52,387 nucleotides of DNA from Dehalococcoidia bacterium (lineage in GTDB: Bacteria; Chloroflexota; Dehalococcoidia; Dehalococcoidales; BS750m-G39): contig DUEC01000014.1 of NCBI GenBank assembly GCA_011176635.1, forward strand, positions 1-52,387. The letters are read 5' to 3'. The notes under the pieces are model-generated. The model did not search any database. It was not told the DNA's origin and worked only from the letters and a program-made list of their open reading frames with translations. How positions within the stretch are numbered: the stretch's first letter is position 1; each line of letters opens with the position of its first letter. A program made the translations under genes and the position numbers. Below, one piece after another: positions 15,729 to 33,261 of this stretch.

Positions 15729-15759
15729 CATTAACCAGCATAAATGGGAGCATCAGGCT

Positions 15760-16098: not shown

Positions 16099-17544
16099 CT
16101 AAAGAACTTTGGAAAAGCCAGATCTTACCTGAAACGGCTCGGCTATACATAGGTACTGGTCTTTAGCCGCTTCCCAGGCCGGCCACTCTACCAGGCCCTC
16201 CACATTGGGGTCTCCCGTTTTAGCAAACTGTGCCCACATCGCCATCATCGCTTCGGAGACCTTTCTATCTATATGGGTAAGGCCTGGGTCTGGTGATTTA
16301 GCCCCGGACGGGCCGGCGAGAAAATATACTATAAGCCAGTTACCAGAGGTGTTATCCCAGTCGCCGAAAACGTAGCCAAGTTCCATGGCATGGGTAGAGA
16401 CACAACCTGCCTGCTTCCATTTGCTCGGAACATGGTCGAAGATGCAGGCATATCCTCTGGCACCAGCCTTGCTCACCGCGGAGAGCATATCAACATAATC
16501 CGAAATTAAAGAGGGGAACACCAATACCCCGGGGCCGGCCAACTCCCCGAGGTTGGCACACACGATGAGGGGGGCGGTATTCTGTTTGCCTGTCTTGAAG
16601 ATGATGGTTGGCGTATCAGGCAGGAACCAGCCGTCCACCGCTGCTTCCCAAAGACCGCCTGGCCCGAACATAGCCAACTCCCTCATCATGGTGTTATCAG
16701 CTTCTATAATTTCCTCCCAGGGTAGGGAGCGAGCCGCCGCCAGCGGGTCTTTCTCCTTATCGACGCCGAGTTTGGCGAAGAATTTCTCCCCCATAGCTTC
16801 CAGCTCTTTTAGGGGTTTACCGGGCATGAACAACCCCACCGATGTCCCGCTCTCGCAGACGGCGCGGTGGAAAAGCCCCTTGGCTAAGGGTGAAGCCATT
16901 AAATTAGCAACCTTAGCCCCGCCCCCGGACTCGCCAAAGATGGTGACATTTTTGGGATCGCCGCCAAAGGCGGCGATGTTCCTCTGCACCCAGTGGAGAG
17001 AAGCCAGTATATCCAGTAACATGTAGTTACCGGAAACACCCTGGGGTGATTCTTTGGAAAGTAGGGGGTGAGCCAGAAGACCTATGCTGTTAAGCCTCAT
17101 GTTAACGTTAACTATCACGACGCCGTAGCCGGGTAGGCGGGGGACATTGGTGAGCGGGTCACTGGCACTACCCAGCTGGTAGCCACCGCCATGCAGCCAG
17201 ACCATTACCGGTAATTTGTCCGTGGTCTTTTTCGCCGGCGTCAGGATGTTCAGGTAAAGGCAGTCTTCGCTTGACGGCAAGATTTGGGGAAAAGGAGGTA
17301 AATCACCCAGCGCGGCCTGCGGGGCTATTTTTTTGAATTCGGTGCATTGGCGAGTTCCCGACCAGTGAGCAACCGGTTGCGGTGGCCACCAGCGCAACTC
17401 TCCTAGCGGCGGGGCAGCATACGGGATGCCGCGATAGATACGTACCTCTTGGCCGGGCTCACCAATCACCGCCCCGGAAACATGTCCCGCCTCTGTCTTC
17501 ACCGGCTTACTTATCAAGTGATTTATAGAAATCCTCCTTCTCAT
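16099..17544 (-). CDS. Type-B carboxylesterase/lipase family hydrolase
   Basis: VMVWLHGGGY oxyanion region and nucleophile elbow GESGGG. The start is uncertain: ATG 17544 overlaps the crotonase gene by 38 nt, and TTG 17517 or GTG 17502 are alternatives. Confidence 0.75.
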   Translation of the reverse strand: MRRRISINHLISKPVKTEAGHVSGAVIGEPGQEVRIYRGIPYAAPPLGELRWWPPQPVAHWSGTRQCTEFKKIAPQAALGDLPPFPQILPSSEDCLYLNILTPAKKTTDKLPVMVWLHGGGYQLGSASDPLTNVPRLPGYGVVIVNVNMRLNSIGLLAHPLLSKESPQGVSGNYMLLDILASLHWVQRNIAAFGGDPKNVTIFGESGGGAKVANLMASPLAKGLFHRAVCESGTSVGLFMPGKPLKELEAMGEKFFAKLGVDKEKDPLAAARSLPWEEIIEADNTMMRELAMFGPGGLWEAAVDGWFLPDTPTIIFKTGKQNTAPLIVCANLGELAGPGVLVFPSLISDYVDMLSAVSKAGARGYACIFDHVPSKWKQAGCVSTHAMELGYVFGDWDNTSGNWLIVYFLAGPSGAKSPDPGLTHIDRKVSEAMMAMWAQFAKTGDPNVEGLVEWPAWEAAKDQYLCIAEPFQVRSGFSKVL

Positions 17545-18379
17545 GAGCCGCTTTCTTCACTCCTTTGTCCCTTCTCTCCTTGAAGAAATTAAACTCGTCC
17601 GGCTCAAAGCTCAGGTTTGTTCCCATAGTATGCTGTATATAAGAATGGGTAAGCCCCTGGGTTACCCCCATAATGTCGTAGAGGAAATGCCGTGACGCCT
17701 TACCAAGAGCGATGCCATCACGGGGGAACTGGGCTAACCCCTGGGCAAGTTCATTAACCTCGGCTTCCAGTTTGTCGGCGGGGACGGCCCTGTTTATCAG
17801 CCCGATTTCACTGGCTTCCTTGCCGTCAATCATTTTACCGGTGATACAGAGCTCCAGGGCCCGGGTCAACCCGCACCTTAGAACCAGCATTGGTGATATA
17901 GTGTTGCCGGCTAGCCCCAGCCTCTCCTCAACATGACCGAGCTTACAGTCTTCAGAGGCTATAAGGAGGTCGCAATTGAGGAACAGGTCTAATGAGGCAC
18001 CGAGCAGGTAACCATGCGCCTGGGCTATGGTCAACTTGTGGCAGAGCAACAACTCCTGGGACTGTTCCCAGAAGGTGCGCCTATCGAAGTGCAAGCGCAC
18101 TCTCAGACTGGGGCGGCGCCCTTTCTCTCCGGGCTTTGGCTCCTTCCAGCCGTAAACGAAACCGACCTTACTCAAGTCGGCCCCGGCGCTAAGGGCACGG
18201 CCGGCCCCTTTAAAAATCACCACCTTGACATCATCATCCTCGTTGACCTCTTTTATCGCCTTGCTTATATCGTCGCTGAGCTCCGGGCACATGGCATTCA
18301 GTGTTTTGGGGCGGTTCAAGGTCACGCGGGCGATATAATCACTCTTCTCATAGATAATATTCTTGTATTTCATTGGCAC
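17507..18379 (-). CDS. Enoyl-CoA hydratase/isomerase (crotonase) family protein
   Basis: VVIFKGAGRALSAGADL and overall crotonase-like sequence, 290 aa. Confidence 0.8.
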   Translation of the reverse strand: MPMKYKNIIYEKSDYIARVTLNRPKTLNAMCPELSDDISKAIKEVNEDDDVKVVIFKGAGRALSAGADLSKVGFVYGWKEPKPGEKGRRPSLRVRLHFDRRTFWEQSQELLLCHKLTIAQAHGYLLGASLDLFLNCDLLIASEDCKLGHVEERLGLAGNTISPMLVLRCGLTRALELCITGKMIDGKEASEIGLINRAVPADKLEAEVNELAQGLAQFPRDGIALGKASRHFLYDIMGVTQGLTHSYIQHTMGTNLSFEPDEFNFFKERRDKGVKKAAHEKEDFYKSLDK

Positions 18380-18482: not shown

Positions 18483-20225
18483 ATGATGAACATGAGTGAT
18501 GCCAGCCATAAGCGGGAGCCCGAAAGCAAGCTTTTGCCCCTCAAGGAAGCGGTGAGACGCCACCTGAAACCGGGGATGAAGCTACATCTTGCCGGTGGCA
18601 TAGGGGGACCCAGCGCCGCCATTTGTGAGATTATCCGCCAATATCATGGTACCACCCCCAATTTCACGCTCATTCAAAGCACCCTGTCGGGCCATGCCCT
18701 GAACCTCCTCCACGGCAACCTGGTGAGTAAGCTGATTTTCTCCGCCGGCGCCGACATATCGACCTCAGGACGCCCCAGCAAGATAATGCAGAAAGTCTGG
18801 GCAGAAAAGAGCCTTGAACTGGAAAACTGGTCTCTCTGCTCCCTCCAGCAGGGGCTGATGGCGGGAGCGCTGGGCGTTAGCTTCATGCCGACCCGTTCTA
18901 TCGCCCGGAGTAGTATGGCGCAGGATAACAAAGATTCTTTTAAGGAGATTGATGACCCCTTCGGGGGTGGAGCCAAGACAGGCGTAGTCAAAGCCATTAA
19001 CCCTGATATCTCCATAGTTCACGGGTGCGTTGCCGATGAACAGGGCAATACCATTTTACCCGCCCCCTATGGCGACGACCTCTGGGGGCCCCTGGCCAGC
19101 ATTAACGGGGTGCTGGTTACCGTCGAGAAGATTGTGCCCGCTGATTCTATAAAGAAATATGCCGCCCTGGTAAAGATACCCAACCATATCGTTAAGGCGG
19201 TGTCGGTAGCGCCTTTGGGGCTTCACCCCTTTTCAATGGCAGACCCGGGGATAAGCGGCTTTAACGCCTATGAGACCGATACCGAGTTTCTAGAGGACTT
19301 GCACCAGGCATCTGCCGACAGCCGGAAACTTGATGCCTGGATAAAGGAGTGGGTAATAGACTGCGCCACGCCGAAAGATTACCTTAATAAATTGGGTAGT
19401 CAAAGGGTAAAGGCCCTCAAGCAGATAACTACCAGGGGCGCTGAGCCCCCCGATTTTTCGGTAAAACCCGCTCCCGAACCGGGGGCAGAATATAGCCCCG
19501 AAGAAATGATGCTGATGGTGGCGGCCAGGGAGATAGCCAGGAGTGTGCTCAAAGCCAAGCACAGGACTATTCTTATGGGCGCCGGCTCTAGAGCTGTTGC
19601 CGTGTTACTGGCCTATTATCAGCTCAGAGCTGAAGGCTATGAACTGGAGCTTATCACCGGTAATGGGCAGATTGGCTACGAGCCCCAACCGGCCGAGCTA
19701 GCCATACCAAGCGTCGCCGGGGTATACAGCTCAAAAATGCTGACCGATACCATAAACACCCAGGGAGTGTTTGTTGGCGGCAGGAACAATAAATGCCTCA
19801 GTGTGCTCGGTGCCGGACAGATTGACCGAAACGGAAACCTTAATTCCACCACAACCGCCGAAGGCCAGTTTCTGGTTGGCTCCGGGGGAGCTAACGATGC
19901 CGCCAATGCCCGGGAAGTGCTCGTAATCCTCAACCAATCAAAAGACCGCTTCCCGGAAACCCTGCCCTACACCACCTGCCCGGGGGACAGGGTAACCACA
20001 GTGGTATCGACTATGGGCGTTTTTACCAAACCAATCGGAAAAACGGAACTGCGCCTGGCGGCATGTCTGCCCGACCCAAAACTACCAGGCCTGGAAGACA
20101 GGATAAAACGGGTGCAGGACAACTGCGGCTGGCTCCTCAAGCTGTCCGATAAGGTTGAAGAGGTAGCCAAACCCACACCAGATGAGTTAAAATTGCTGCG
20201 CTGGCTGGTGCCTTTGCCCTCATGA
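18483..20225 (+). CDS. Fused family-I CoA-transferase-like protein (GctA/AtoD-like N half + GctB/AtoA-like C half)
   Basis: LKPGMKLHLAGGIGG in the A-like half; YSPEEMMLMVAAREIA and GSGGAND in the B-like half. I moved the start to ATG 18483 because the 5' extension in the track overlaps the divergent crotonase gene. Confidence 0.7.
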   Translation: MMNMSDASHKREPESKLLPLKEAVRRHLKPGMKLHLAGGIGGPSAAICEIIRQYHGTTPNFTLIQSTLSGHALNLLHGNLVSKLIFSAGADISTSGRPSKIMQKVWAEKSLELENWSLCSLQQGLMAGALGVSFMPTRSIARSSMAQDNKDSFKEIDDPFGGGAKTGVVKAINPDISIVHGCVADEQGNTILPAPYGDDLWGPLASINGVLVTVEKIVPADSIKKYAALVKIPNHIVKAVSVAPLGLHPFSMADPGISGFNAYETDTEFLEDLHQASADSRKLDAWIKEWVIDCATPKDYLNKLGSQRVKALKQITTRGAEPPDFSVKPAPEPGAEYSPEEMMLMVAAREIARSVLKAKHRTILMGAGSRAVAVLLAYYQLRAEGYELELITGNGQIGYEPQPAELAIPSVAGVYSSKMLTDTINTQGVFVGGRNNKCLSVLGAGQIDRNGNLNSTTTAEGQFLVGSGGANDAANAREVLVILNQSKDRFPETLPYTTCPGDRVTTVVSTMGVFTKPIGKTELRLAACLPDPKLPGLEDRIKRVQDNCGWLLKLSDKVEEVAKPTPDELKLLRWLVPLPS

Positions 20226-20269
20226 GCTTACAATAGCCATCTGGTGAGCTACTAACAAAGGAGGCTTCT

Positions 20270-21490
20270 ATGGCCGGGCCGCTGGAAGGTATCCGAGTTC
20301 TGGAGTGTGGCGGTTATCTCAGTGCTCCCTCGGCCGGCTATATGCTGGGTGACCTGGGGGCTGAGGTAATCAAGATAGAAGACAGGGTCAAAGGAGACCC
20401 GGTCCGGGGTATGTCATCCACCTTTGGTAGAGGCATGATTATGCCCGACGGCACCAACATCCTGTTTGAAACCGCCAATAGAAACAAGAAAAGCATAACG
20501 CTGGATTTAAAAAAGGAAAAGGGGAAAGAACTGCTATACCGTTTAGTCGGCGTATCAGACGTATTCTGCACTAACTTCTCCCGCTCCGCCATTGATAGCC
20601 TGGGTATAGATTACCAGACCCTTAAGAAGCATAATAAAAAGATTATTTACGGTTTGGCCACGGGCTACGGTTCACTGGGGCCCGAGAGCGAGAAACGCGC
20701 CTTCGATACCATCGCCCAGGCGCGCTCAGGGATAATGGGTACTATCGGTGAGCCGGATGGCCCCCCCTTGCAGATAGCCGGGGCGATATTTGACCAGGTG
20801 ACGGGGACACTCCTGGTAAACGGCATATTAGCCTCGCTGGTAGCTCGGGACAAACAGGGGGCCGGCCAGGAGGTTGAAGTATCTCTGCTCGGCTCGGGAA
20901 TACACATGCAGGCCTATAACATCAACGTGGCCCTGCTGCGCGGGCGCCCGATGCCAAAACCTTCCAGACAGACGCTTAAAAATCCCCTGGCCAATCACTA
21001 CCAATGCGCCGATGGCAAATGGCTGCTGTTGGCCGAGCCCCAGTCCGACCGGTTTTGGCACAACTTTTGCCTCGCCCTGGGCATCGGAAAACTGGAAAAG
21101 GATGCCAAATTCGCCACCGCCAAAGACAGGCGTGATAATTTCCTGGAGCTTGCCGCCACTCTGGAGAAGGTATTTAAAACCAAGACCAGAGACGAATGGA
21201 TAAGCATTCTGCAGACCAAGGGCGGTGGCATCGCCTTTTCCCCTGTCCTTGAGCTGACCGAACTGCCTTTAGACCCACAGGTACTGGCTAACGAGTATAT
21301 TACCGAAGTTGACCATCCTACACTGGGCAAGGTCAAAACGATAGGTATCCCCATCAAGTTCAGCCAGACGCCGGCCCAGATTAAAAGCTGTGCCCCCAAC
21401 TTCGGCCAGCACACCGAAGAGGTGCTGATGGATGTCCTCGGCTACAGCTGGGAAGAGATACAGACACTGAAAGACGAGGAAATAATCTAG
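20270..21490 (+). CDS. Family-III (CaiB/BaiF/Frc-type) CoA-transferase, copy 1
   Basis: GIRVLECGGYLSAPSAGYMLGDLGAEVIKIE and FDTIAQARSGIM motifs. Confidence 0.85.
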   Translation: MAGPLEGIRVLECGGYLSAPSAGYMLGDLGAEVIKIEDRVKGDPVRGMSSTFGRGMIMPDGTNILFETANRNKKSITLDLKKEKGKELLYRLVGVSDVFCTNFSRSAIDSLGIDYQTLKKHNKKIIYGLATGYGSLGPESEKRAFDTIAQARSGIMGTIGEPDGPPLQIAGAIFDQVTGTLLVNGILASLVARDKQGAGQEVEVSLLGSGIHMQAYNINVALLRGRPMPKPSRQTLKNPLANHYQCADGKWLLLAEPQSDRFWHNFCLALGIGKLEKDAKFATAKDRRDNFLELAATLEKVFKTKTRDEWISILQTKGGGIAFSPVLELTELPLDPQVLANEYITEVDHPTLGKVKTIGIPIKFSQTPAQIKSCAPNFGQHTEEVLMDVLGYSWEEIQTLKDEEII

Positions 21491-21527
21491 AGATTTAGAG
21501 CGTCCGGCCGGACTTTAGGAGAAAACG

Positions 21528-22988
21528 ATGGAAATTAGGGTTAAGCAAAAGCGCATAGACGAAGAGCGCTTCCTGGAAATGCGCAAGGAGGTGCTGGCCC
21601 AATGGCCGACGGGCAAGGAGGTTGACCTTGAGGAGGCGGTAGCCTACCAGCTGAGTCTGCCGGAAAGCAAGAACTTCATGAAAGTTACCGAAAAAGCGCG
21701 CCAGGAAGGGGAAACCCTTATCTGGCCCAGGGCCGGCACCCCGGTCCTCGAGGACGAGATTGCCCTGGTCAAGACCCTGGTAGATGCCGGCATACGCCAC
21801 ATTCCGGTGACCATTGATAGCTATACTCGTTTGCTGCAGTTTGAAAAAGCTCAGCAGGCCCTGGAGGAGTCAATTAAGACTGGCCGCCCCATGCTCAACG
21901 GCTACCCCATCGTTAACCACGGCGTTAAGAAGACCAGGAAGGTGGTGGAAAGCGTTGAGGCCGCCTTTGTCCCTAGAGGCGCCGGCAGACTGGCCATGGA
22001 AATTGCCCTTGCCTCGGGTATGACGGCGGCGGGGAAGAGTTCACTCTTTGAATTTGGTAGCTACGAGAAAAAAACCACCCTGGAAGAATGCTTTGAACAC
22101 AGCCAGTATACGGACAGGCTGGCCGGATATTACACCGAAAGAGGCGCCATAATATCCACGGATATCCATGGACTTGTACCATCCGGCGTTTTTCCCTTCA
22201 GTGTCAATATAGCCTGTATAATCATAGACTCTCTGGTCGCCGCCGAGCAGGGGGTTAAAAGCATAATGCCCCAGACCCACTGTTTGGGACACATGGCGCA
22301 GGATATAGCCTGGATGAGGTTGATACCAAGATTGATGAGGGAGTACCTGGAAAAATTCGGCTATAAGGACGTTGTGGTCCCAGGCATACTGGCCAATCAG
22401 ATTCCTCTTTTCCCGGTTCCGCAGGGAATGGGCGGGGCCTTCGCCTACCTAAACTATACGGCCATGGTGGCGGCATTAGCTGAAGCCGAAGCGGTGTTTG
22501 TCAGGACTATTGATGAAGGGGCCGGTGTGGCCACAAGGGAGAGCCACGCTCTCAGCTATGAGTCGGCAAACTGGATTTTGAATGTGGTGAGGACACAAAA
22601 GATTAAATGTGAGATTGACGGTGTGGAAACAGAAGAGAAGGTAACCGATGTGGAAGTGAGGGCAATACTTGATAAGGTCCTGGAGCTCGGCGATGGTGAT
22701 GTAGTCATTGGCTCAATAAAGGGGGTCGAAGCTGGGGTGATTGATTCACCATTCAGCCCTAATATCAACATCAAAGACAAGGTGCTCGGCGTCAAGGATG
22801 TTACCGGAGCCTGCCGCTACCTTGAGTTCGGCAATCTGCCCATACCGGATGAGATTAAGGAGTTCCACCGGGAAAAGATAGCCGAGAGGGAGCGAGCCGA
22901 GGGAAGAAAGCTGGACTACCAGGTGGCGGTTGAGGACCTTTGGGCCTTAAGCAAGGGAAGAATAGTCGGCGCCCCCTCGGCCAGCTGA
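21528..22988 (+). CDS. Glutamate mutase epsilon (E) subunit-like adenosylcobalamin mutase component
   Basis: 486 aa. EVLAQWPTGKEVDLEEAV, WPRAG, TIDSYTR, AAEQGVK, RYLEFGN and SKGRIVG match my recollection of clostridial GlmE. Confidence 0.8.
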   Translation: MEIRVKQKRIDEERFLEMRKEVLAQWPTGKEVDLEEAVAYQLSLPESKNFMKVTEKARQEGETLIWPRAGTPVLEDEIALVKTLVDAGIRHIPVTIDSYTRLLQFEKAQQALEESIKTGRPMLNGYPIVNHGVKKTRKVVESVEAAFVPRGAGRLAMEIALASGMTAAGKSSLFEFGSYEKKTTLEECFEHSQYTDRLAGYYTERGAIISTDIHGLVPSGVFPFSVNIACIIIDSLVAAEQGVKSIMPQTHCLGHMAQDIAWMRLIPRLMREYLEKFGYKDVVVPGILANQIPLFPVPQGMGGAFAYLNYTAMVAALAEAEAVFVRTIDEGAGVATRESHALSYESANWILNVVRTQKIKCEIDGVETEEKVTDVEVRAILDKVLELGDGDVVIGSIKGVEAGVIDSPFSPNINIKDKVLGVKDVTGACRYLEFGNLPIPDEIKEFHREKIAERERAEGRKLDYQVAVEDLWALSKGRIVGAPSAS

Positions 22989-23012
22989 GAGTTCTTAAGA
23001 CAAGGAGAGGTA

Positions 23013-23438
23013 ATGAAAAAACAAGCCACGGTGATAACCGGAACGGTAGGGATGGATGCCCATGTCATCGGCACTAAAATCCTATCTCGCGCCCTGAAGG
23101 ATGCCGGGTTCAATGTTGTTGAACTGGGCATTCAGGTATCACCGGAGGAGTTCACTGAAGTGGCTAAAAAAACAAAAGCCGATGCCATCTTAATGACTTC
23201 ACTCTATGGTATGGCTGAGCTGGACTTAAGAGGATTCAAAGAGAAGTGTAAACAAGCCGGCCTTGAAGACTTGATTCTCTATATTGGCGGTGTCCTCGGG
23301 GTGGGCAGACAGGACTTCAAAGAAGTGGAGAAGAGATTCAAGAAGCTGGGATTTGAAAGAGTCTACCCACCCGAAGCCAATTTGGAATCAGTTATCGAAG
23401 ACCTCTGGAATGACCTGAGAGCAAAAGGGAAGACTTAA
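23013..23438 (+). CDS. Glutamate mutase sigma (S) subunit-like B12-binding protein
   Basis: 141 aa. DxHxxG motif (MDAHVIG), plus AGFNVVELG, KADAILMTSLYG, YIGG and VEKRFKKLGFERVY. Confidence 0.85.
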   Translation: MKKQATVITGTVGMDAHVIGTKILSRALKDAGFNVVELGIQVSPEEFTEVAKKTKADAILMTSLYGMAELDLRGFKEKCKQAGLEDLILYIGGVLGVGRQDFKEVEKRFKKLGFERVYPPEANLESVIEDLWNDLRAKGKT

Positions 23439-23448
23439 AAAGGAGCTT

Positions 23449-24675
23449 GTGCTAAACGGTTGTCGGGCATTAGACCTAACTGGTGAAAACGGCTTTCTCT
23501 GCGGCAAAATCCTGGCTGACCTCGGCGTTGACGTAATCAAGGTTGAGAAGCCCGGGGGCGACCCTGCCCGCCGAAGGGGGCCTTTCTGGGCTGACGCTCC
23601 GCACCCGGAGAAAAGCCTGTACTGGTTTGCTTACAACTCAAACAAAAGAGGTATCACCCTCAATATTGAAGCCGATAAAGGCAAAGAGATACTGAAAAAG
23701 CTAGTCAAGACGGCGGACTTCATAATTGAGTCATTCCCCCCCGGATTTATGGACAGCCTGGGACTGGGCTATTCCGCGCTCAACAGTATCAAGAAGGGAA
23801 TAATCCTGACCTCCATTACGCCGTTTGGTCAAGCTGGACCCTATAAGGACTACCAGGCCTCAGATATCGTGATTATGGGTATGGCCGGAATTCTTTACCA
23901 GACTGGCGACCCCGACCGTCCCCCGGTACAGATAAGCCTGCCGCAGGCCTGCCTTCACGCTGGAGCCGATGCCGCCGTGGCAACGATGATTGCCTATTAC
24001 CACCGGGAAATGAGCGGAGAAGGGCAGCAGGTAGATATATCAATGCAACAGAGCGCTGCCTGGTTTCTGGCCAATGCCATACCGCTCTGGGAGCTGAGCG
24101 GGGTGGCCTTGAAAAGGGCGGGGGCTTTTCGCTGGACTGTCAACTCCACGCAGCGGCAGGTCTGGCAGTGCCAGGACGGCTATGTCTTCTTCTTCATGGT
24201 AGGTGGCCGAGCCGGCGCTAAGAGCTTTCACGAGCTGGTGAGCTGGATGGACAGCCAAGGCATGACTAACGAATACCTGCGTTCCGTTGACTGGGAGAAC
24301 CTGGACATGTTCAAAGTCAGCCAGGATGTAGTCGACCAGATTTCCCAACCGATAGAAAAGTTCTTTCTGGCGCACACCAAGAAAGAGATTGCCCAGGGGG
24401 CAGCCGAGAGAAGTATATCAATCTGCCCCCTATCCAGCATGGCTGACCTGATGAATGACGGCCAGCTTGAATCCCGAAACTTCTGGATGGAAATAGAGCA
24501 CCCCGAATTTAATACCCAAATCACCTATCCCAGAGAATTTGTTAAGTCATCTCAAGAAACCTGCGCTACCCGATTCAGGGCTCCGCTTACCGGCGAGCAT
24601 AACGGGGAAATCTATGGCCAGATAGGGCTCTCTAAAAAAGAGCTGGTTGCCTTAAAACAGGCTTGGATTATCTAG
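23449..24675 (+). CDS. Family-III CoA-transferase, copy 2 (GTG start)
   Basis: CRALDLTGENGFLCGKILADLGVDVIKVEKPGGDP. 408 aa. Confidence 0.8.
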   Translation: MLNGCRALDLTGENGFLCGKILADLGVDVIKVEKPGGDPARRRGPFWADAPHPEKSLYWFAYNSNKRGITLNIEADKGKEILKKLVKTADFIIESFPPGFMDSLGLGYSALNSIKKGIILTSITPFGQAGPYKDYQASDIVIMGMAGILYQTGDPDRPPVQISLPQACLHAGADAAVATMIAYYHREMSGEGQQVDISMQQSAAWFLANAIPLWELSGVALKRAGAFRWTVNSTQRQVWQCQDGYVFFFMVGGRAGAKSFHELVSWMDSQGMTNEYLRSVDWENLDMFKVSQDVVDQISQPIEKFFLAHTKKEIAQGAAERSISICPLSSMADLMNDGQLESRNFWMEIEHPEFNTQITYPREFVKSSQETCATRFRAPLTGEHNGEIYGQIGLSKKELVALKQAWII

Positions 24676-24696
24676 AAAGGGGTATAACATTAGGAA

Positions 24697-25920
24697 ATGG
24701 AGGCTAGAAACGGCGTATTCAGCGGCATAAAAATAGCCGGCTTCGGCTGGGCCATAGTCGGCCCGCTAACCATGAAATACTTCGCCGACTACGGGGCAAC
24801 CGTGATTCGCGTGGAGAGCAGCCAACGCCCCTGCACCCTGAGGATATCAGCCCCCTATAAGGATGACAAGCCCGGCTTAGACCGCAGCGGCTACTTCAAT
24901 CATTTCAGCGCCAACATGTTCAGCCTGGCGCTTAACATGGAGCACCCTCAAGCCCGGCAGGTAGCCAGAAGGCTGGTGGCCGAGTCTGACGTGGTCATGG
25001 ATAACTTCACCCCCGGGGTGATGGAGAGCTGGGGGTTGGATTATGAGGAACTAAAAAAGGTCAAGCCCGACATCATTATGCTGCGGCAGAGCGGCTTTGG
25101 TTCCTGGGGTCCCTATGCCCAACAACCAGCCTTTGGCATGATACTGGCGGCTATGGCCGGCTTACCCAATTTCATAGGCTGGCCGGACAGAGGGCCACTA
25201 CCGGTTGGTGTCTCAGCCTATACCGACTGTATCTCCCCCCGTTTTGCCTCGGCCGCCCTGATTGCCGCCCTCGATTACCGCAATAAGACCGGAAAAGGCC
25301 AGCTGCTCGATTTATCACAGTTTGAAACGACGCTCTACTTTATAATGCCGGCTATCCTGGAATACATTTCAAGCGGCAGAGAACCATCAAGGTTAGGCAA
25401 CCGCCACCCCCACGCCGCCCCCCACGGCGTCTATCCCTGCAAGGGCGATGACCGCTGGTGCACTATAGCCGTATTCAGCGATGAGCAGTGGGCTAGCCTG
25501 TGCCGGGTGATGGGTAAGACCGAGTACATAGACGACCCCCGCTTCAGTACCCTGCCCAGCAGAAAGCAGAACGAGGATGAAATCAACCAACTGATAAGCG
25601 GCTGGACGGTTGACTTCACGCCGGAAGAGGTGATGGCCGAGATGCAGTCGGTCGGTGTGCCCGCCGGGGTGGTCAAGAATGCCGCTGACATATATAATGA
25701 CCCTCAACTGAGACAGCGCAACCTCTTCTGGCCCATAAATCACCCCGATATGGGGTTATTTACCCATCTGGGGCAGGGCTTTGAGCTGTCAAGAACGCCG
25801 GCGAAAGCCCAAACGCCCAGCCCCCGGCTGGGTGAACATACCGAGTATGTCTGTAATAAGATACTGGGCATGACTAGCGAAGAGTTTGCTAAGCTCTTCG
25901 GCGCCGGGGTGTTTGTTTGA
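24697..25920 (+). CDS. Family-III CoA-transferase, copy 3
   Basis: GIKIAGFGWAIVGPLTMKYFADYGATVIRVES. 407 aa. Confidence 0.8.
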   Translation: MEARNGVFSGIKIAGFGWAIVGPLTMKYFADYGATVIRVESSQRPCTLRISAPYKDDKPGLDRSGYFNHFSANMFSLALNMEHPQARQVARRLVAESDVVMDNFTPGVMESWGLDYEELKKVKPDIIMLRQSGFGSWGPYAQQPAFGMILAAMAGLPNFIGWPDRGPLPVGVSAYTDCISPRFASAALIAALDYRNKTGKGQLLDLSQFETTLYFIMPAILEYISSGREPSRLGNRHPHAAPHGVYPCKGDDRWCTIAVFSDEQWASLCRVMGKTEYIDDPRFSTLPSRKQNEDEINQLISGWTVDFTPEEVMAEMQSVGVPAGVVKNAADIYNDPQLRQRNLFWPINHPDMGLFTHLGQGFELSRTPAKAQTPSPRLGEHTEYVCNKILGMTSEEFAKLFGAGVFV

Positions 25921-25949
25921 ATTTACTTTAAAGAAAACAGGGGGCGATT

Positions 25950-26735
25950 ATGGACTTAAAACTAACCGACAAGGTAGCCTTGATAACCGGTACCGGCAGC
26001 CAGATAGGCTTCGGTAAGGGTATAGCCCTGGCTCTAGCCAGGGAAGGGTGCCACATAATTAGCGTCGATGTAGACCTTGAAGGAGCCCAAAAAACAGCGG
26101 CTGAGGTCAGGGCTTTAGGGCGTAAGGCTATTGCCATCAAGGCAGATATAACTAAAAAGGCCCAAGTTGACAAGGCAGTTAAGGAAGCCCTGGCTGAATT
26201 TGGTAAAATAGACATACTGGTAAATAATGCCGGCCGTGCCAGCGGCGTGCGGCCCTTCGTCACCACCACCGAAGCGCAGTGGGACATAGATATAGATGTT
26301 AACCTCAAGGGCACGCTATATTTCACCCAGGCCGTTCTCCCTCACATGCTTGAGCGCAAATACGGCAAGATTGTCAATTTCTCGACACATGCCGCCCACC
26401 AGCCAACAGGTCTGGCTGGTGCCGGTCCCTACATCGCGGCTAAGGCAGGAGTGGTGATGTTCAGTAAAACGCTTGCCGGCGAGGTGGGGCCTTCGGGAAT
26501 AAATATAAACATAATCGCCCCCGGCCCAGGGGCTACCAATTTCCACCGTACCAGCGGGGCTCCTCCTCAAATGGTAGAACTCGTCGAATCAATGGCCAAG
26601 GAAGGCCTGGCTGCCACGCCCCAGGATATTGCCAATACGGTAGCTTTTCTGGTCTCGGACGTAGCCAAGAAACTCTCAGGGCAGGTTATTGAGGTCTTTG
26701 CCCCCGCCGGGAGTCCTGGTGGCGGGGCCAATTAA
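25950..26735 (+). CDS. Short-chain dehydrogenase/reductase (SDR)
   Basis: TGTGSQIGFG, NNAG, and Y..AAKAG (YxxxK). Confidence 0.85.
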   Translation: MDLKLTDKVALITGTGSQIGFGKGIALALAREGCHIISVDVDLEGAQKTAAEVRALGRKAIAIKADITKKAQVDKAVKEALAEFGKIDILVNNAGRASGVRPFVTTTEAQWDIDIDVNLKGTLYFTQAVLPHMLERKYGKIVNFSTHAAHQPTGLAGAGPYIAAKAGVVMFSKTLAGEVGPSGININIIAPGPGATNFHRTSGAPPQMVELVESMAKEGLAATPQDIANTVAFLVSDVAKKLSGQVIEVFAPAGSPGGGAN

Positions 26736-26749
26736 ATTGGAGGTTTACC

Positions 26750-27607
26750 ATGAGCTTTACTCAAGAAGTAAAGAAATTTGCCGCTGAAGAACTGGATATG
26801 GACTATACCGGCATAGCCAGCGTGGACAGGCTCTCGGGAGCCCCTGAAGGCCACCGGCCCACCGACCTCCTTCCCGGTGCCAGAGCCGTAATCGCGATGG
26901 CGGTCCGACTATCACAAGGGGCGGTACAGACAATTTTTAGGGCCTATGAGGATGGATTAAGGCATGCCCAGTGCATCTACGGGACACACGGCTATGCCCT
27001 CACCCCAAACCTCCATTTGAAGTTTGCCGCCTATAGAATGGCCAGATTTCTGGAGAAGAAAGGCCATATAACGACACCATTACCATCCGGGCCTGGCGCT
27101 GGCGGCGCTCCTTTTAGCCACCGACATGCCGCCGTAGCCGCCGGACTTGGTGAGTTCGGCTGGTTGGGCATCATCATAACACCTGATTGCGGACCGAGGC
27201 TCAGGCTGGTCAGCGTCATAACCAGGGCTGAGCTTGAGCCCGACCCCCTCTACCAGGGGCCGAGGCTATGCGACCCGACCAAGTGCGACATATGCGTAAA
27301 AATCTGCCCGACAAATGCCATAAGTGAAAAGGAGTCAAAAAGCGTGGTCATGGCTGGCCGAACCTTTGAATACGGGAAAGTGGATTTCGCCAAATGCCGT
27401 GTCGGTTCGGAGGGCCTCCTTAAAAAGAGCCTCGGTTTCAAGGATTTACCCATCCCGGAGAATCCTACCTGGGAAGATGTCGATAAGGCCCGCCAGAGCA
27501 TAGACCCCAGGCAGTTGCAGGAGGCTATCCTACCCGCCGACCGAGCCACATGGTACTGCGGCAAATGCCTGGCCTATTGCCCTGTCGGGCAAAAAATAGC
27601 CGAATAA
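26750..27607 (+). CDS. QueG/RdhA-related 2x[4Fe-4S] protein without an obvious corrinoid domain
   Basis: The N-terminus resembles epoxyqueuosine-reductase-like proteins. Cluster motifs CDICVKICPTNAI and CGKCLAYCPVG. Confidence 0.55.
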   Translation: MSFTQEVKKFAAEELDMDYTGIASVDRLSGAPEGHRPTDLLPGARAVIAMAVRLSQGAVQTIFRAYEDGLRHAQCIYGTHGYALTPNLHLKFAAYRMARFLEKKGHITTPLPSGPGAGGAPFSHRHAAVAAGLGEFGWLGIIITPDCGPRLRLVSVITRAELEPDPLYQGPRLCDPTKCDICVKICPTNAISEKESKSVVMAGRTFEYGKVDFAKCRVGSEGLLKKSLGFKDLPIPENPTWEDVDKARQSIDPRQLQEAILPADRATWYCGKCLAYCPVGQKIAE

Positions 27608-27617
27608 AGGAGGAAAA

Positions 27618-29087
27618 ATGAAGACAGGAAAGGCTGAGAACAGCAATTACGATGTCGCTATCATTGGTGGTGGGGCTTCCGGGTTGGCCGCCGCCCTGAC
27701 TGCGGCCGAAGGGGGCGCCAGAGTCGTCCTTCTGGAGAAGAGGAACCACATGGGAGGAAGCTCTAATTTCGCTGAAGGGCTGTTCGCCGTGGAGAGCGAA
27801 ATGCAGCGCCCGATGTACATGAACTACTCCCGCGCCCAGGCCTTCAGGAACGTGATGGAGTATAACCACTGGAAGGCCAACGCGCGCCTGGTTCGGGCCT
27901 TTATCGACGAATCGGCGGCCACTATCAGCTGGTTGCTGAACCGCGGGGTCGAATTTACCGAGGCGATAACCAATATACCGGACGGTTGGCGGACACTGCA
28001 TTGCCTGAAAGGGCCCTTCGGGGCGATGGGGTCGCCCATGATAAAGACCCTGACCCGCCGGGCCAGAGAAAAAGGCGTTGATATCAGGCTGGCAACGCCG
28101 GCTAAAAAGATTCTAAGAAAAGGAGACAATATCAACGGCGTCATCGCCGAAAGAGAGGGCGAACCGGAGCCAATCGAGGCCAAAACGGTTGTTATCGCCA
28201 GCGGTGGTTATGCCAACAACAAGGAGTGGATTAAGAAGTATACCGGTTATGACCTGGGGGTCAACGCCATTCCAATCCGCAACTATGATAAGGTCGGGGA
28301 CGGCATCCGCCTGGGTTGGGAAGTCGGCGCCGCCGAAGAAGGCATGGGCGTTCTGCATTTCTTCCGCGTCGGCCCCATGGGGCCGGGAGTCCGCATGCTG
28401 TGCCACGTCGAGTGCGCCTGCCTCCAGCCCTTCCTCTGGGTCAACCAGCAGGGAGAGCGTTTCTGCGATGAGTCCATCGCCTTTAACGATACCTTCGAGG
28501 GTAATGCCAGCGCCCGCTTAAAAGAGGGCTACAGCTACACCATATTCGACGATGCCACCAAGGAGCTCATGGTAGAACACGGCATTGAAAAGAGCGTCTC
28601 CAACAAGAACCTGACTGGCACCCGGCTTACCAACTTTGATAGAGACCTGAAGAAGGCCTTGGACAAAAAGAACACTGAGATAGCCGTTGCCGGCACTATA
28701 GAAGAGCTGGCCCGGAAAATAAAGGTGGAGCCTTCCGTACTCAAGGCAACCGTTGACGAGTATAACCGCTTCTGTGACACCGGCTGCGATGAGGTCTTTG
28801 CCAAGGAGCCGAAGTACCTCCTGCCGGTGAAGAAGCCGAAATTCTACGCCATGAAGGGCCATACCGTTTTCCTGGGAACCTTGGGCGGCATCAAGATTAA
28901 CCACCGCATGGAGGTAGTTGACGAGAAGGAAAAAGCTATCCCCGGCCTCTACACCGTGGGCACGGATGCCGGCGGGCTCTACGGGGACAGTTACTGCTTC
29001 CTGCCGGCTTCGGGGACGACGCTCGGCTTTGCCGTCAATTCGGGGCGGATTGCCGGTAGAAATGCCTTAAGGTACATCGGAAAGTAG
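27618..29087 (+). CDS. FAD-dependent oxidoreductase (FAD_binding_2; soluble fumarate reductase / KstD-like)
   Basis: YDVAIIGGGASGLAAALTAAEGGARVVLLEK, and C-terminal GLYTVGTDAGG. Confidence 0.8.
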   Translation: MKTGKAENSNYDVAIIGGGASGLAAALTAAEGGARVVLLEKRNHMGGSSNFAEGLFAVESEMQRPMYMNYSRAQAFRNVMEYNHWKANARLVRAFIDESAATISWLLNRGVEFTEAITNIPDGWRTLHCLKGPFGAMGSPMIKTLTRRAREKGVDIRLATPAKKILRKGDNINGVIAEREGEPEPIEAKTVVIASGGYANNKEWIKKYTGYDLGVNAIPIRNYDKVGDGIRLGWEVGAAEEGMGVLHFFRVGPMGPGVRMLCHVECACLQPFLWVNQQGERFCDESIAFNDTFEGNASARLKEGYSYTIFDDATKELMVEHGIEKSVSNKNLTGTRLTNFDRDLKKALDKKNTEIAVAGTIEELARKIKVEPSVLKATVDEYNRFCDTGCDEVFAKEPKYLLPVKKPKFYAMKGHTVFLGTLGGIKINHRMEVVDEKEKAIPGLYTVGTDAGGLYGDSYCFLPASGTTLGFAVNSGRIAGRNALRYIGK

Positions 29088-33232: not shown

Positions 33233-33261
33233 AGCTTTTCCTCCCTGTATATTTGATGGTG

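Follow-up and report, generated by a model that had tools for sequence, protein, structure and literature searches.

Two adjacent genes of an uncultured Dehalococcoidales bacterium (positions 21528-23438 of the 52,387-nt stretch of DNA analyzed here, called the window in the following) probably encode a two-subunit AdoCbl-dependent carbon-skeleton mutase, which would interconvert a free C5 dicarboxylate other than glutamate and a 3-methyl-branched succinate, with partner proteins encoded nearby processing the product. This reading draws on the fold of the catalytic (E) subunit, the presence of a cofactor-binding (S) subunit, the residue pattern of the active site, the separation of the E subunit from true glutamate mutases and the conserved neighborhoods of its relatives.

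Genomic context of the mutase genes

The E and S genes lie among three genes for family-III CoA-transferases, termed a, b, and c (Table 1). Open reading frames and profile matches agree with the gene order given in the original prediction (CoA-transferase a, E with 486 aa, S with 141 aa, CoA-transferases b and c), and the tight spacing on one strand was likewise confirmed, as the intergenic gaps within 20270-25920 amount to 37, 24, 10, and 21 nt and all five genes are located on the plus strand. They are part of a larger plus-strand operon of nine genes spanning approximately 18483 to 29087, around which divergent and convergent partner genes are found between 13.9 and 34 kb. Since four independent assemblies carry an identical E protein with the same neighbors in the same order, the locus is not an assembly artifact. 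For the family-I CoA-transferase the mechanically called reading frame begins at TTG 18363; ATG 18483, which yields 580 aa (homologue median 583 aa), is the likely start. The likely start of the crotonase gene is ATG 18373, preceded by GGAGGG.

Profile searches among the sizeable open reading frames of the window yielded no match to the families of methylaspartate ammonia-lyase, GlmL/MutL or citramalate lyase, and a tblastn search of the window with a GlmL homologue was also negative, in agreement with the absences stated originally. A thiolase, an acyl-CoA dehydrogenase and a C-C lyase are missing from the cluster as well, and the proposed pathway is therefore without a visible end.

Table 1. 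Features of the mutase locus (positions refer to the window).
Feature	Position	Strand	Remarks
Second aldehyde:ferredoxin oxidoreductase	13920..15728	+	AFOR_N/AFOR_C
111-aa ORF after second AFOR	15706-16041		Cluster 20, travels with AFOR, 5 loci
Type-B carboxylesterase	16099..17544	-	COesterase E 4.6e-95
Crotonase-type enoyl-CoA hydratase/isomerase	17507..18373	-	ECH_1/ECH_2; divergent; generic PDB matches
Family-I CoA-transferase, fused glutaconate-CoA-transferase-like	18483..20225	+	580 aa; PF01144 E 2.8e-20
Family-III CoA-transferase a	20270..21490	+	406 aa; PF02515 (CoA_transf_3) E 8e-110
GlmE-like catalytic (E) subunit, AdoCbl carbon-skeleton mutase	21528..22988	+	486 aa; active-site loop MTAAGKSSLFEFGSYE
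GlmS-like cobalamin-binding (S) subunit	23013..23438	+	141 aa; B12-binding domain
Family-III CoA-transferase b	23449..24675	+	408 aa, CoA_transf_3; benzylsuccinate CoA-transferase subunit-like
Family-III CoA-transferase c	24697..25920	+	407 aa, CoA_transf_3; other benzylsuccinate CoA-transferase subunit-like
SDR1, short-chain dehydrogenase/reductase	25950..26735	+	adh_short E 1e-52; below all NCBIfam equivalog cutoffs
4Fe-4S protein, distantly QueG/reductive-dehalogenase-like	26750..27607	+	Fer4 families; weak TIGR02486/TIGR00276
FAD flavoprotein, fumarate-reductase/TcuA/vinylphenol-reductase family	27618..29087	+	FAD_binding_2 E 9.5e-53
MmgE/PrpD-family protein	29102..30484	-	PF03972 + PF19305
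SDR2, short-chain dehydrogenase/reductase	30509..31345	-	adh_short_C2 E 1.5e-57
Tungsten/molybdenum aldehyde:ferredoxin oxidoreductase (AOR type)	31388..33265	-	AFOR_N + AFOR_C

Fold, active site and phylogeny of the mutase

The E subunit matches PF06368 (Met_asp_mut_E) over its full length (E 7.6e-139) and is 40% identical to glutamate mutase (PDB 6H9E_B/1CB7_B). Its AF2 model (pLDDT 89) superimposes on glutamate mutase epsilon with a TM-score of 0.94 and an rmsd of 1.9 Å; the next-best folds, those of aminomutases and MCM, reach a TM-score of about 0.5, and the PF01642 domain had no match in the profile search of the window. On the NCBI equivalog model TIGR01503 (methylaspartate mutase subunit E) the protein scores 416 bits and thus exceeds the cutoff of 390 by 26, while other members of its clade reach 359-375 bits and true GlmE proteins 773-888 bits, so that the clade straddles the cutoff. 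The S subunit scores 186.5 bits on NF002612 (methylaspartate mutase S; cutoff 110) and 160.8 bits on TIGR01501 (cutoff 135.8). Its DxHxxG motif, predicted as MDAHVIG, was read as GMDAHVIG and is followed downstream by SLYG and YIGG.

In the HMMER alignment of the E subunit with C. cochlearium GlmE (PDB 1CCW/1CB7 chain B; E 1.5e-103), TAAGKSSLFEFGSY stands ungapped opposite TSNEGGGISYNVPY, a pairing that gives Glu171 to Gly, Tyr177 to Glu and His150 to Gly. In total, H150G, E171G, Y177E, and K326R are changed and a 3-residue deletion follows position 150, while Arg66 (WPRAG), Arg100 (TIDSYTR), Arg149, Tyr181, and Glu330 are kept. The expectation of an altered Glu171 stretch next to retained WPRAG and TIDSYTR motifs thus holds, and the mapping of the substrate-binding residues suggested along with it found three of them replaced and the arginine triad intact. 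In the C. cochlearium enzyme, positions 150, 171, and 177 are taken to be the non-arginine substrate contacts, with His150, Glu171, and Tyr177 presumably lining the amino-group pocket and Arg66, Arg100, and Arg149 acting as the arginine "claws" that hold two carboxylates; the role of position 181 is assumed likewise.

Position 171 is never Glu in the 120 nearest E homologues (58-97% identity). Glu177 and Lys172 are invariant within the window protein's own group, to which Lys172 is specific. Not every member of the clade has lost Glu171, since a neighboring group keeps Glu at this position in a T-x-x-E-G-G context like that of GlmE. At least five variants of the active-site loop exist within the clade, a diversity that speaks for several substrates among its members.

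A phylogeny of the E subunits, proposed earlier as a check, placed the window clade as a monophyletic group in a neighbor-joining tree, apart from the clade of true glutamate mutases, which comprises 31 representatives, among them GlmE_Cc and almost every carrier of the R-R-R-H-E-Y-Y signature. When searched for exhaustively, the window clade condensed to 2 representatives scoring about 560 bits, the next match reaching only 370 bits. Species-representative genomes from many anaerobic phyla contain it at 145 or more places. Several databases name clade members "methylaspartate mutase," no source gives any of the 240 listed members the name "2-methyleneglutarate mutase," and no literature on this mutase clade was found. 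A separate PF06368 group, P0303 (35% identity), has nicotinate-pathway-like neighbors, namely hydroxyacid dehydrogenases and an ICL/PEP-mutase lyase.

Conserved neighborhoods and partner proteins

A survey of gene neighborhoods, likewise suggested earlier, covered 80 genome loci of E relatives. None of these contained a methylaspartase gene within 10 kb, nor did the remaining neighbor clusters of 330-520 aa, and no aminotransferase, ammonia-lyase or amino-acid dehydrogenase was conserved in the 80 neighborhoods. PrpF-family methylitaconate isomerase, dimethylmaleate hydratase and dimethylmalate lyase were absent from the window and from the recurrent neighbor clusters. Recurrent neighbors are S (after E in 45 of the 80 loci, or fused to the C-terminus of E), the CoA-transferase-III pair, SDRs beside E (47 loci), GlmL (36), a PrpD-like protein (31), AFORs (27), crotonase-type ECH orthologues (23), and the family-I CoA-transferase (19). 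The GlmL-type accessory gene stands immediately after S and its product scores 542 bits on NF040745 (cutoff 475); the missing GlmL reactivase of the original prediction is therefore correct for the window but not clade-wide, being a peculiarity of the window sub-lineage. In some relatives E and S are fused into a single chain, with a GlmL/MutL-type gene behind it. Some clade groups that share the R/R/R/Y181/D214/H216 core occur in loci without any CoA-transferase, either of the GRE type or of the Actinomycetota PrpD-HyuAB-SDR-AFOR type. Carboxylate transporters of the TRAP (DctP/DctM), Tct or MFS type adjoin several related loci.

S and GlmL aside, the most constant enzymatic partner of the clade is the MmgE/PrpD-like protein, which the original prediction did not mention. 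Its orthologues (47-86% identity) stem from Chloroflexota, Bacillota, Actinomycetota, Desulfobacterota, Acidobacteriota, and Thorarchaeota, and a PrpD-like gene also adjoins P0241 and the sister-group representative P0243. The protein is a candidate dehydratase, isomerase or decarboxylase for the branched acid; its best PDB matches are to IDS epimerase (141 bits) and to Irg1/cis-aconitate decarboxylase.

CoA-transferase a, located directly upstream of E in loci of the window type and of the delta/Acidobacteriota type, falls below all NCBIfam equivalog cutoffs, and judged by its best PDB matches (YfdW, 190 bits; succinate-hydroxymethylglutarate CoA-transferase, 181 bits) it is of a generic dicarboxylate or formyl-CoA-transferase-like type. 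The neighboring CoA-transferases b and c are paralogues of each other (26% identity), and b always adjoins c in related loci. Each has its best PDB match in a different subunit of BbsEF, the succinyl-CoA:(R)-benzylsuccinate CoA-transferase (PDB 9FN0), b in the 9fn0_A chain (211 bits, near full length) and c in the 9fn0_B chain (284 bits). While c carries the conserved Asp177 of its group, Cys168 in b replaces the Asp that is invariant in groups a and c, and b is likely to be the non-catalytic one of the two. A crotonase and SDRs accompany the b/c pair, as they do in the bbs operon; in contrast to that system, BbsG-type acyl-CoA dehydrogenase, BbsAB thiolase and benzylsuccinate synthase are lacking in the window, and the substrate of b/c is presumably a small methyl-branched succinate, not benzylsuccinate. 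The family-I CoA-transferase had two PDB matches only, the better one to GctA, subunit A of glutaconate CoA-transferase (1poi_A, 74 bits), and the other to 5mzw_A, also a subunit A of the Gct family (34 bits).

The FAD flavoprotein has counterparts in 13 related loci and scores 383 bits on the VprA model (cutoff 600) and 205 bits on TcuA. It is a candidate enoate reductase or substituted-succinate dehydrogenase, and the 4Fe-4S protein, restricted to the closest relatives (L031), is probably its electron-transfer partner. BbsD is among the top PDB matches of SDR2, though not the best. The AOR-type enzyme scores 383 bits against AOR 9mqx_D versus 190 against BamB 4z3w; the second AFOR keeps its upstream position in L002-L005 and L031, the relatives closest to the window. 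The carboxylesterase is peripheral, with orthologues only in close relatives (L003, L005).

Proposed reaction and alternative readings

By analogy with GlmES, we infer a radical mechanism in which Co-C homolysis would generate a 5'-deoxyadenosyl radical that abstracts hydrogen from the substrate. Migration of the carbon bearing the 2-substituent would then interconvert a linear 2-X-glutarate-type and a branched 2-X-3-methylsuccinate-type diacid. As the three arginine claws still hold two carboxylates, a free di- or tri-carboxylic acid is the most likely substrate, and because the amino-group pocket has been rebuilt (His150Gly, Glu171Gly, Tyr177Glu, plus Lys172), X is most likely hydroxyl, oxo or methylene, or bears an additional acidic group, rather than being NH3+. 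In the place of methylaspartase, the MmgE/PrpD-like protein would dehydrate, isomerize or decarboxylate the branched acid. The BbsEF-like pair b/c would activate the substituted succinate, the GctA-like enzyme and CoA-transferase a would handle the linear C5 acid, and crotonase, SDRs, the FeS/FAD pair, and the aldehyde oxidoreductases would contribute the remaining hydration and redox steps.

The original prediction had offered a dicarboxylate or a CoA ester as substrate. That the mutase acts on a dicarboxylic acid CoA thioester, made and recycled by the flanking CoA-transferases as in methylmalonyl-CoA mutase-like metabolism, is unlikely, although the operon includes four CoA-transferase genes, of which three directly flank E-S, and a crotonase is conserved too. 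MCM, ICM, HCM, and ECM are likewise AdoCbl-dependent carbon-skeleton mutases amid CoA-ester metabolism, but they differ in the catalytic domain: E has the GlmE-type fold and no PF01642 domain, and all three carboxylate-binding arginines are kept. This fold, together with same-core relatives in CoA-transferase-free loci, makes a free dicarboxylate the more likely substrate. Another pathway that unites such activities is the haloarchaeal methylaspartate cycle, which employs glutamate mutase, methylaspartase, a family-III succinyl-CoA:mesaconate CoA-transferase and mesaconyl-CoA hydratase and is, to our knowledge, the only one known to combine a GlmE-type mutase, a family-III CoA-transferase and a C5-branched-diacid hydratase. 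The window differs from it in lacking methylaspartase and in its crotonase-type hydratase; matches to the NCBIfam mesaconate CoA-transferase model reach 162-194 bits (cutoff 700).

The AdoCbl-dependent 2-methyleneglutarate mutase (Mgm) of Eubacterium barkeri (EC 5.4.99.4) converts a free, non-amino C5 dicarboxylate to a 3-methyl-branched product. Orthology to this enzyme in a nicotinate-like or related pathway, which would leave only the context as new, fits a substrate with two carboxylates and no amino group, the retained arginines, the lost Glu171, and the aldehyde- and alcohol-oxidizing enzymes close by. In their arrangement, the E-S fusions with a MutL-like gene among the relatives also resemble mgm, a single-chain E-S fusion with a GlmL/MutL-type gene behind it. 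Still, orthology is quite improbable: the window enzyme is encoded by two separate genes and lacks downstream nicotinate-fermentation genes, the isomerase, hydratase and lyase named above are missing from the window and the recurrent neighbor clusters, none of the 240 listed clade members bears the name, nicotinate-pathway-like neighbors belong to P0303, and the loop variants speak for several substrates.

Glu177 might reach the place of the lost Glu171, and for this reason another amino-dicarboxylate, such as an N- or beta-substituted glutamate, has to be considered, with Glu177/Lys172 replacing Glu171 and the PrpD-like protein serving as epimerase. The invariance of both residues, the Glu171 of the neighboring group and the similarity of the PrpD-like protein to its best solved relative, IDS epimerase, which acts on an N-substituted aspartate, would suit such a substrate; it is nevertheless quite improbable, as no amino-acid-converting enzymes of the types sought are conserved in the neighborhoods and the partners are of the kind usual in carboxylic-acid and CoA-ester catabolism.

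A close known system is glutamate mutase, GlmES/MutES of C. cochlearium and C. tetanomorphum (EC 5.4.99.1; PDB 1CCW, 1CB7, 1I9C, 6H9E), which shares with the window enzyme the TIM-barrel E, the small DxHxxG cobalamin-binding S, the kept residues listed above and, with many relatives, a GlmL-type accessory gene. The gene order, however, is E-S-(L) in the window clade and S-L-E in glutamate mutase, and the locus is devoid of the methylaspartase, mesaconase and citramalate lyase of the classical pathway (PMC8473912). An ordinary glutamate mutase with methylaspartase and the rest of its pathway encoded elsewhere and coincidental neighbors is very improbable, for the exceeded E and S equivalog cutoffs, the database labels, and the retained arginines and Tyr181 are outweighed by the three substitutions, a score half that of true GlmE in a clade lying on either side of the cutoff, the separate phylogenetic position and the cross-phylum neighborhood free of methylaspartase in 80 loci.

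The same observations support the original prediction of a carbon-skeleton mutase with a different substrate. Because the amino-group residues are lost and the gene set is conserved across many phyla, the enzyme most likely acts on a different dicarboxylic acid in an anaerobic pathway and, if this reading is true, the pathway that it serves is most likely an undescribed one.

Operon structure and CoA-transferases

The original prediction had placed a glutamate-mutase-like E subunit and a GlmS-like, B12-binding S subunit in close succession between family-III CoA-transferases (gene a upstream, genes b and c downstream). The ORF list and the Pfam assignments returned the same five plus-strand genes in this order and at these coordinates, and the expected tight spacing was found as well, with intergenic gaps of 10-44 nt (10 nt between S and the next gene), which indicates an operon. 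The five genes are the centre of a nine-gene plus-strand operon whose last gene ends at 29087 and which reads: a fused, glutaconate-CoA-transferase-like family-I CoA-transferase (CoAT-I), a, E, S, b, c, a short-chain dehydrogenase/reductase (SDR), a 4Fe-4S protein and a flavoprotein of the fumarate-reductase/TcuA/VprA family. Upstream of the operon lie a second aldehyde:ferredoxin oxidoreductase (AFOR) and a carboxylesterase. Four independent assemblies carry an identical E protein in the same gene surroundings. The mechanical ORF of CoAT-I begins at a TTG (18363) and would overlap the start of the divergent crotonase gene; the likely start is an in-frame ATG yielding the median length of the homologues. 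Because a TATAAT-like hexamer directly abuts this ATG on its 5' side, the CoAT-I transcript may have no leader or only a very short one.

Features of the mutase operon and of other parts of the window
Feature	Position	Strand or orientation	Description
Methylenetetrahydrofolate reductase (MTHFR) gene	1239-1892
MTHFR-C-terminal-like gene	3370-4287		DUF5981
B12-binding radical-SAM protein	11014-13167	-	717 aa, C-terminal PqqD-like (peptide-recognition) domain
Crotonase	17507-18373	divergent from operon
CoAT-I	from ATG 18483	+	580 aa
CoA-transferase a	20270-21490	+	406 aa, CoA_transf_3, E 8e-110 (Pfam)
E subunit	21528-22988	+	486 aa, Met_asp_mut_E (PF06368), E 7.6e-139, full length
S subunit	23013-23438	+	141 aa, B12-binding (Pfam)
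CoA-transferase b	23449-24675	+	408 aa, CoA_transf_3 (Pfam)
CoA-transferase c	24697-25920	+	407 aa, CoA_transf_3 (Pfam)
MmgE/PrpD-family protein, second SDR, AFOR (AFOR2), NmrA-like protein	29102-34215	convergent on operon
AFOR2	31388-33265
PilB-type secretion ATPase	39269-41710	-	N-terminal Mrr_cat (restriction-endonuclease-like) domain
Type IV pilus gene set	41732-49469
Mrr_cat-TackOD1 protein	50299-51672	-	second Mrr_cat, fused to TackOD1 output domain

In agreement with the absences noted originally, no ORF of the window matched the methylaspartase, GlmL/MutL or citramalate-lyase families, and a tblastn search of the window with a GlmL relative was negative (E > 1). The cluster lacks a C-C lyase, a thiolase and an acyl-CoA dehydrogenase and so does not reveal how the pathway ends; acyl-CoA dehydrogenase and thiolase are absent from the whole window. 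Outside the cluster, a search for a lyase, a thiolase or end-points of the pathway found none, the genes at 0-13 kb being unrelated and those at 38.5-52 kb forming a type IV pilus cluster. The remaining genes, i.e., type IV pilus, MTHFR, two-component and radical-SAM genes, are unrelated to the cluster. Among these, the 717-aa protein lies inside a low-GC patch at 10-14 kb (GC 0.42 vs ~0.55 elsewhere in the window) and could be a maturase that modifies peptides (RiPP type), encoded on a segment that was acquired. The two Mrr_cat genes flank the pilus gene set. A histidine kinase gene separates the MTHFR and DUF5981 genes, which, like the truncated molybdopterin oxidoreductase at the window start, may be related to the Wood-Ljungdahl pathway.

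The adjacent and paralogous transferases b and c are 26% identical to each other and, like BbsEF, each match a different Bbs subunit. Gene b matched chain A of benzylsuccinate CoA-transferase (9fn0_A) with 211 bits and c matched chain B (9fn0_B) with 284 bits, whereas the cross-matches to the opposite 9FN0 chains reached 81 bits only. Cys168 of b, a residue shared by 87% of the b group, takes the place of an aspartate that is invariant in a (Asp175) and c (Asp177) and stands in a D-x-x-(T/S) context. This aspartate, which we equate with Asp169 of formyl-CoA transferase, is probably the catalytic residue of family III, and its replacement in b suggests that c is the catalytic and b the non-catalytic subunit. 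Given the Bbs-subunit matches and the missing aspartate of b, the two probably form an obligate heteromer that acts on a 2-substituted succinate. Transferase a resembles formyl-CoA and succinate-hydroxymethylglutarate transferases, and the best solved relative of CoAT-I is glutaconate CoA-transferase. Judged by these nearest relatives, the four transferases suggest dicarboxylic acids of two types, C5-linear acids and substituted succinates. Glutaconate CoA-transferase belongs to the 2-hydroxyglutarate pathway of glutamate fermentation, which has an alternative in the 3-methylaspartate pathway, with glutamate mutase as its hallmark (PMC8473912).

Two further assignments were considered and rejected. 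A bbs-like beta-oxidation of an arylsuccinate does not fit, as specific similarity to Bbs proteins is confined to the CoA-transferase pair, the crotonase and the SDRs are of generic type and, unlike the bbs set, the window has neither a BbsG acyl-CoA dehydrogenase nor a BbsAB thiolase. AFOR2 as a BamB-type ring reductase, which would hint at aromatic catabolism, is contradicted by its scores (AOR 383 bits vs BamB 190 bits); it is a genuine AOR-type enzyme.

Fold, pocket residues and placement of the E subunit

Residues 44-483 of E cover positions 1-441 of the PF06368 profile and thereby the complete Met_asp_mut_E TIM-barrel domain. An AlphaFold2 model of E, generated from an input alignment of 24 clade sequences (pLDDT 89, pTM 0.92), matched the epsilon subunit of glutamate mutase (6H9E_B) with a TM score of 0.94 and an rmsd of 1.9 A. 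The next-best folds, lysine/ornithine aminomutases and methylmalonyl-CoA mutases (MCM), reached a TM score of ~0.5, and Pfam gave no match to the MCM catalytic domain in E. According to the model, E is a GlmE-type barrel and not one of the MCM type, in which the CoA ester is threaded through the barrel axis. The S subunit carries the DxHxxG base-off/His-on motif as D-A-H-V-I-G, as had been read from the sequence before, and passes both methylaspartate mutase subunit S models (NF002612, 186.5 bits, cutoff 110; TIGR01501, 160.8 bits, cutoff 135.8).

HMMER aligned E to the epsilon subunit of Clostridium cochlearium glutamate mutase (GlmE_Cc; 1CB7/1CCW chain B) with E 1.5e-103, the stretch from Thr168 to Tyr181 being free of gaps (TAAGKSSLFEFGSY in window E, TSNEGGGISYNVPY in GlmE). 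Glu171 is replaced by Gly, Tyr177 by Glu and His150 by Gly, and three residues are deleted after position 150. From the C. cochlearium structures, we take Glu171, His150 and Tyr177 to be the residues on the amino-group/C2 side of the substrate. Window E retains Arg66 (WPRAG), Arg100 (TIDSYTR), Arg149, Tyr181 and Glu330. In an alignment of window E with its 120 nearest homologues, each of the carboxylate-binding arginines 66, 100 and 149 is present in 120-121 of the 121 sequences, window E among them. These homologues (58-97% identical) carry G, A, P, S or N at position 171 but never Glu, and keep the three arginines, Tyr181, Asp214, His216 and Glu330. On the TIGR01503 equivalog model, window E scored 416.4 bits vs a cutoff of 390.1, compared to 773-888 for true GlmE proteins, while other clade members stayed under the cutoff at 359-375.

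An exhaustive HMMER scan of 1.84 billion cluster representatives yielded 893 relatives, among which the window clade collapses to two representatives at ~560 bits, followed by the next one at 370 bits (43% identity). In a neighbour-joining tree of 120 sequences, the window clade is monophyletic, its sister group lacks Arg66, and GlmE_Cc falls into another clade of 31 representatives. Among 111 full-length representatives, the signature R66/R100/R149/H150/E171/Y177/Y181 occurs almost solely in this latter clade. Within PF06368 as a whole (representatives P0241-P0390), ~31 of the 111 full-length representatives at 50% identity have the glutamate-binding signature; dozens of other clusters differ at positions 66, 149, 150, 171, 177 and 181, and several are without the arginines. 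Most of this 'methylaspartate mutase E' family therefore seems functionally unexplored.

Distribution, gene neighbourhoods and substrate-loop groups

A genome scan with clade-specific peptide patterns found at least 145 stretches encoding relatives of window E among 185,579 species-representative genomes, with several genomes holding multiple clade paralogues. A Dehalococcoidales MAG encodes an E protein 97% identical to that of the window; further carriers belong to the Syntrophorhabdaceae, Desulfobacteraceae and other Thermodesulfobacteriota, Moorellales, Clostridia/Oscillospiraceae, Actinomycetota, Acidobacteriota, spirochaetes and Bacteroidota and include one Thorarchaeota MAG. Neighbourhoods were taken from the best 80 of the 145 stretches. 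All of these 80 loci derive from MAGs, and one named cultured carrier was found, Sporobacter termitidis, in which E and S are fused.

Clustering of all ORFs from the 80 loci, combined with tblastn searches using the window proteins, revealed a conserved set of partners. SDRs were present in 47 loci, S as a separate ORF in 45 (C-terminal fusions to E left out), family-III CoA-transferases in 41, MmgE/PrpD-like orthologues in 31 (47-86% identity), AFORs in 27, crotonases in 23, a family-I CoA-transferase in 19 and the flavoprotein in 13. TRAP, Tct or MFS carboxylate transporters are frequent beside the clade loci. No methylaspartase was found within 10 kb in any of the 80 loci, the 67 remaining neighbour clusters of 330-520 aa included. 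Since a PrpD-like gene is also found next to P0243, which represents the sister group, and next to the clade representative P0241, the pairing of mutase and PrpD-like gene is older than the window clade. A GlmL-type accessory protein (NF040745, 542 bits, cutoff 475) is encoded directly after S in 36 of the 80 loci, including other Dehalococcoidales (loci L007, L009, L011, L012 and L018), and is missing at this place in the window and its closest relatives; its absence is thus a recent, local feature.

Clade members can be divided by their substrate loop (positions 167-182) into at least five groups, and gene context follows this division. The pattern suggests that one catalytic scaffold has been adapted to a series of related acids.

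Substrate-loop groups of the window clade and their gene contexts (ECH, crotonase; CoAT, CoA-transferase; GRE, glycyl radical enzyme)
Group	Loop	Taxa	Gene context
1 (window)	MTAAGKSSLFEFGSYE	Dehalococcoidales	CoAT-I, CoAT-a, E, S, (GlmL), CoAT-b, CoAT-c
2	(M/L)TTxEGG...GSYS	Dehalococcoidales	two SDRs, E, S, GlmL, CoAT-b, c, ECH, PrpD, CoAT
3	MTAMPNSFFGWIxGYD	many phyla	two contexts: GRE type, Actinomycetota type
4	MTGxSxGPFISWGAYE	Desulfobacterota, Syntrophorhabdaceae	as window type (context in 2/6 loci)
5	MTALPPSIFQLFGNYE	Desulfobacteraceae, Leptospirales	CoAT-III, E, S, GlmL, CoAT pair, three crotonases

Group 2 often retains Glu at position 171. In the GRE context of group 3, E directly follows an uncharacterised GRE and its activase, some loci contain Fe-alcohol dehydrogenases, and one related locus has aldehyde dehydrogenases. 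The GRE-linked loci (L022, L023, L028, L055, L072-L079 and L081, the last from S. termitidis DSM 10068, genes 3471-13481) encode E relatives that are 52-57% identical to window E, most of them E-S fusions. The upstream GRE (~841 aa, PFL2-3 subfamily) stays under every NCBIfam equivalog cutoff, and several of these loci, L081 included, contain Fe-alcohol dehydrogenases, a PucR regulator and a GlmL/MutL gene. In the literature searched, no operon combining a B12 radical enzyme with a GRE was found. The Actinomycetota context of group 3 comprises the PrpD-like gene, hydantoinase/oxoprolinase-type A and B subunits, an SDR and an AFOR; in L052, L053, L057 and L059, the E gene comes after IclR and these genes, and L056 has a partial version without the hydantoinase genes. 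ORF clustering detected no separate S gene beside E in L052, L053, L057 and L059, so that the B12 subunit is either encoded elsewhere or was missed by the clustering.

Outside the clade, the contig of representative P0303 (L083) encodes a fused E-S protein 35% identical to window E. Its neighbours, a 3-hydroxyisobutyrate-dehydrogenase-like protein, a 2-hydroxyacid dehydrogenase, an ICL/PEP-mutase-family lyase, TctA/TctC and an RraA-like protein, are reminiscent of the late steps of nicotinate fermentation. This group may be the true 2-methyleneglutarate-mutase-like one or represent yet another specificity.

Candidate substrates and competing explanations

GlmE-type enzymes interconvert a 2-substituted glutarate and a 2-substituted 3-methylsuccinate by hydrogen abstraction through the adenosyl radical and migration of the C2 fragment. 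The window enzyme is predicted to work like glutamate mutase (EC 5.4.99.1), with which it shares the fold, the cofactor subunit and the carboxylate-binding arginines, and probably like 2-methyleneglutarate mutase (Mgm). It differs from glutamate mutase in the C2-side residues, the phylogenetic placement and the missing linkage to methylaspartase. The radical scaffold is the same in both, and what differs is the pocket and the pathway context, which is conserved.

The retained arginine triad and the existence of clade members without a nearby CoA-transferase argue for a free acid as substrate. A CoA ester, the other option raised in the original prediction, would fit the flanking transferases but is at odds with the fold, with the arginines and with the CoA-transferase-free relatives, and we regard it as a minor possibility. 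The loss of Glu171, His150 and Tyr177, the gain of Lys172, Glu177 and His216 and the presence of a PrpD-family protein in place of methylaspartase all speak against an amino group as the 2-substituent. A pocket without amino-group residues, as well as the fused E-S and MutL arrangement of some relatives, would be in line with an orthologue of Eubacterium barkeri Mgm (EC 5.4.99.4). However, the nicotinate-pathway partners are absent: neither the window nor the recurrent neighbour clusters contain methylitaconate isomerase, dimethylmaleate hydratase or dimethylmalate lyase, and nicotinate-like neighbours belong to the different PF06368 group of P0303, the only place where the ICL/PEP-mutase neighbour was seen. 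The name 2-methyleneglutarate mutase is also missing among the listed homologues of a fused clade member and of the fused outgroup P0303. Judged by gene context and names, orthology to Mgm appears rather improbable, and we are just as doubtful about another amino-dicarboxylate bound through Glu177. An ordinary glutamate mutase is very improbable in view of the separate clade, the replaced residues, the lower equivalog score and a neighbourhood that is conserved across phyla with no methylaspartase found in 80 loci. At the level of sequence and comparative genomics, the predicted non-glutamate substrate was supported by residue alignment, E-subunit phylogeny and neighbourhood survey, with a CoA ester as the less likely option.

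From the fold, the cofactor subunit, the residue pattern, the clade and the neighbourhoods we infer candidate substrates and fluxes for what is most likely a mutase of non-amino free acids. The rearrangement might connect 2-hydroxyglutarate and 3-methylmalate, which is a slow side reaction of true glutamate mutase, 2-oxoglutarate and 3-methyloxaloacetate, or 2-methyleneglutarate and 3-methylitaconate. A 2,2-disubstituted case such as homocitrate and 2-methylcitrate is also conceivable; Lys172, the PrpD-like partner and the transporters of the tricarboxylate type would be in keeping with it. Members of the PrpD family catalyse the dehydration, decarboxylation or epimerisation of polycarboxylates, and the best solved relatives of the window PrpD-like protein are IDS epimerase and Irg1. 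The branched acid could accordingly be dehydrated or isomerised by the PrpD-like enzyme and activated by the BbsEF-like transferase b/c, after which the crotonase may catalyse hydration and the SDRs oxidation. The FeS/FAD pair could act as an enoate reductase or a substituted-succinate dehydrogenase, and the GctA-like transferase together with transferase a may serve the linear acid.

It is quite possible, although we propose it tentatively, that window E belongs to an unrecognised radiation of GlmE-type adenosylcobalamin mutases that are permanently paired with MmgE/PrpD-like enzymes and catalyse undescribed rearrangements (2-hydroxyglutarate to and from 3-methylmalate, 2-oxoglutarate to and from 3-methyloxaloacetate, or homocitrate to and from 2-methylcitrate). 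These mutases would form the core of a widespread anaerobic route by which Dehalococcoidales, Desulfobacterota, Actinomycetota, Bacillota, Acidobacteriota and Asgard archaea break down or interconvert di- and tricarboxylic acids, both linear and methyl-branched, with at least five specificity groups, one of them coupled to an uncharacterised GRE. No description of the window clade, the mutase-PrpD-like pairing or the GRE-linked variant was found in the full-text literature searched.

Because the clade scores straddle the TIGR01503 cutoff, the NCBI equivalog model and the JGI annotation call some clade proteins 'methylaspartate mutase' and others 'hypothetical', and a glutamate fermentation or methylaspartate cycle reconstructed from these genes is therefore probably wrong. 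To our knowledge, only a handful of adenosylcobalamin carbon-skeleton mutases have been described, and glutamate mutase and 2-methyleneglutarate mutase are the only ones we know of that act on free acids. A third substrate class in the GlmE fold would, if true, be new radical chemistry. A new class of this kind, widespread among uncultured anaerobes, is probable for this very small family of enzymes and would explain a gene cluster that recurs in abundant uncultured anaerobes of sediments and the subsurface whose carbon sources are poorly understood.
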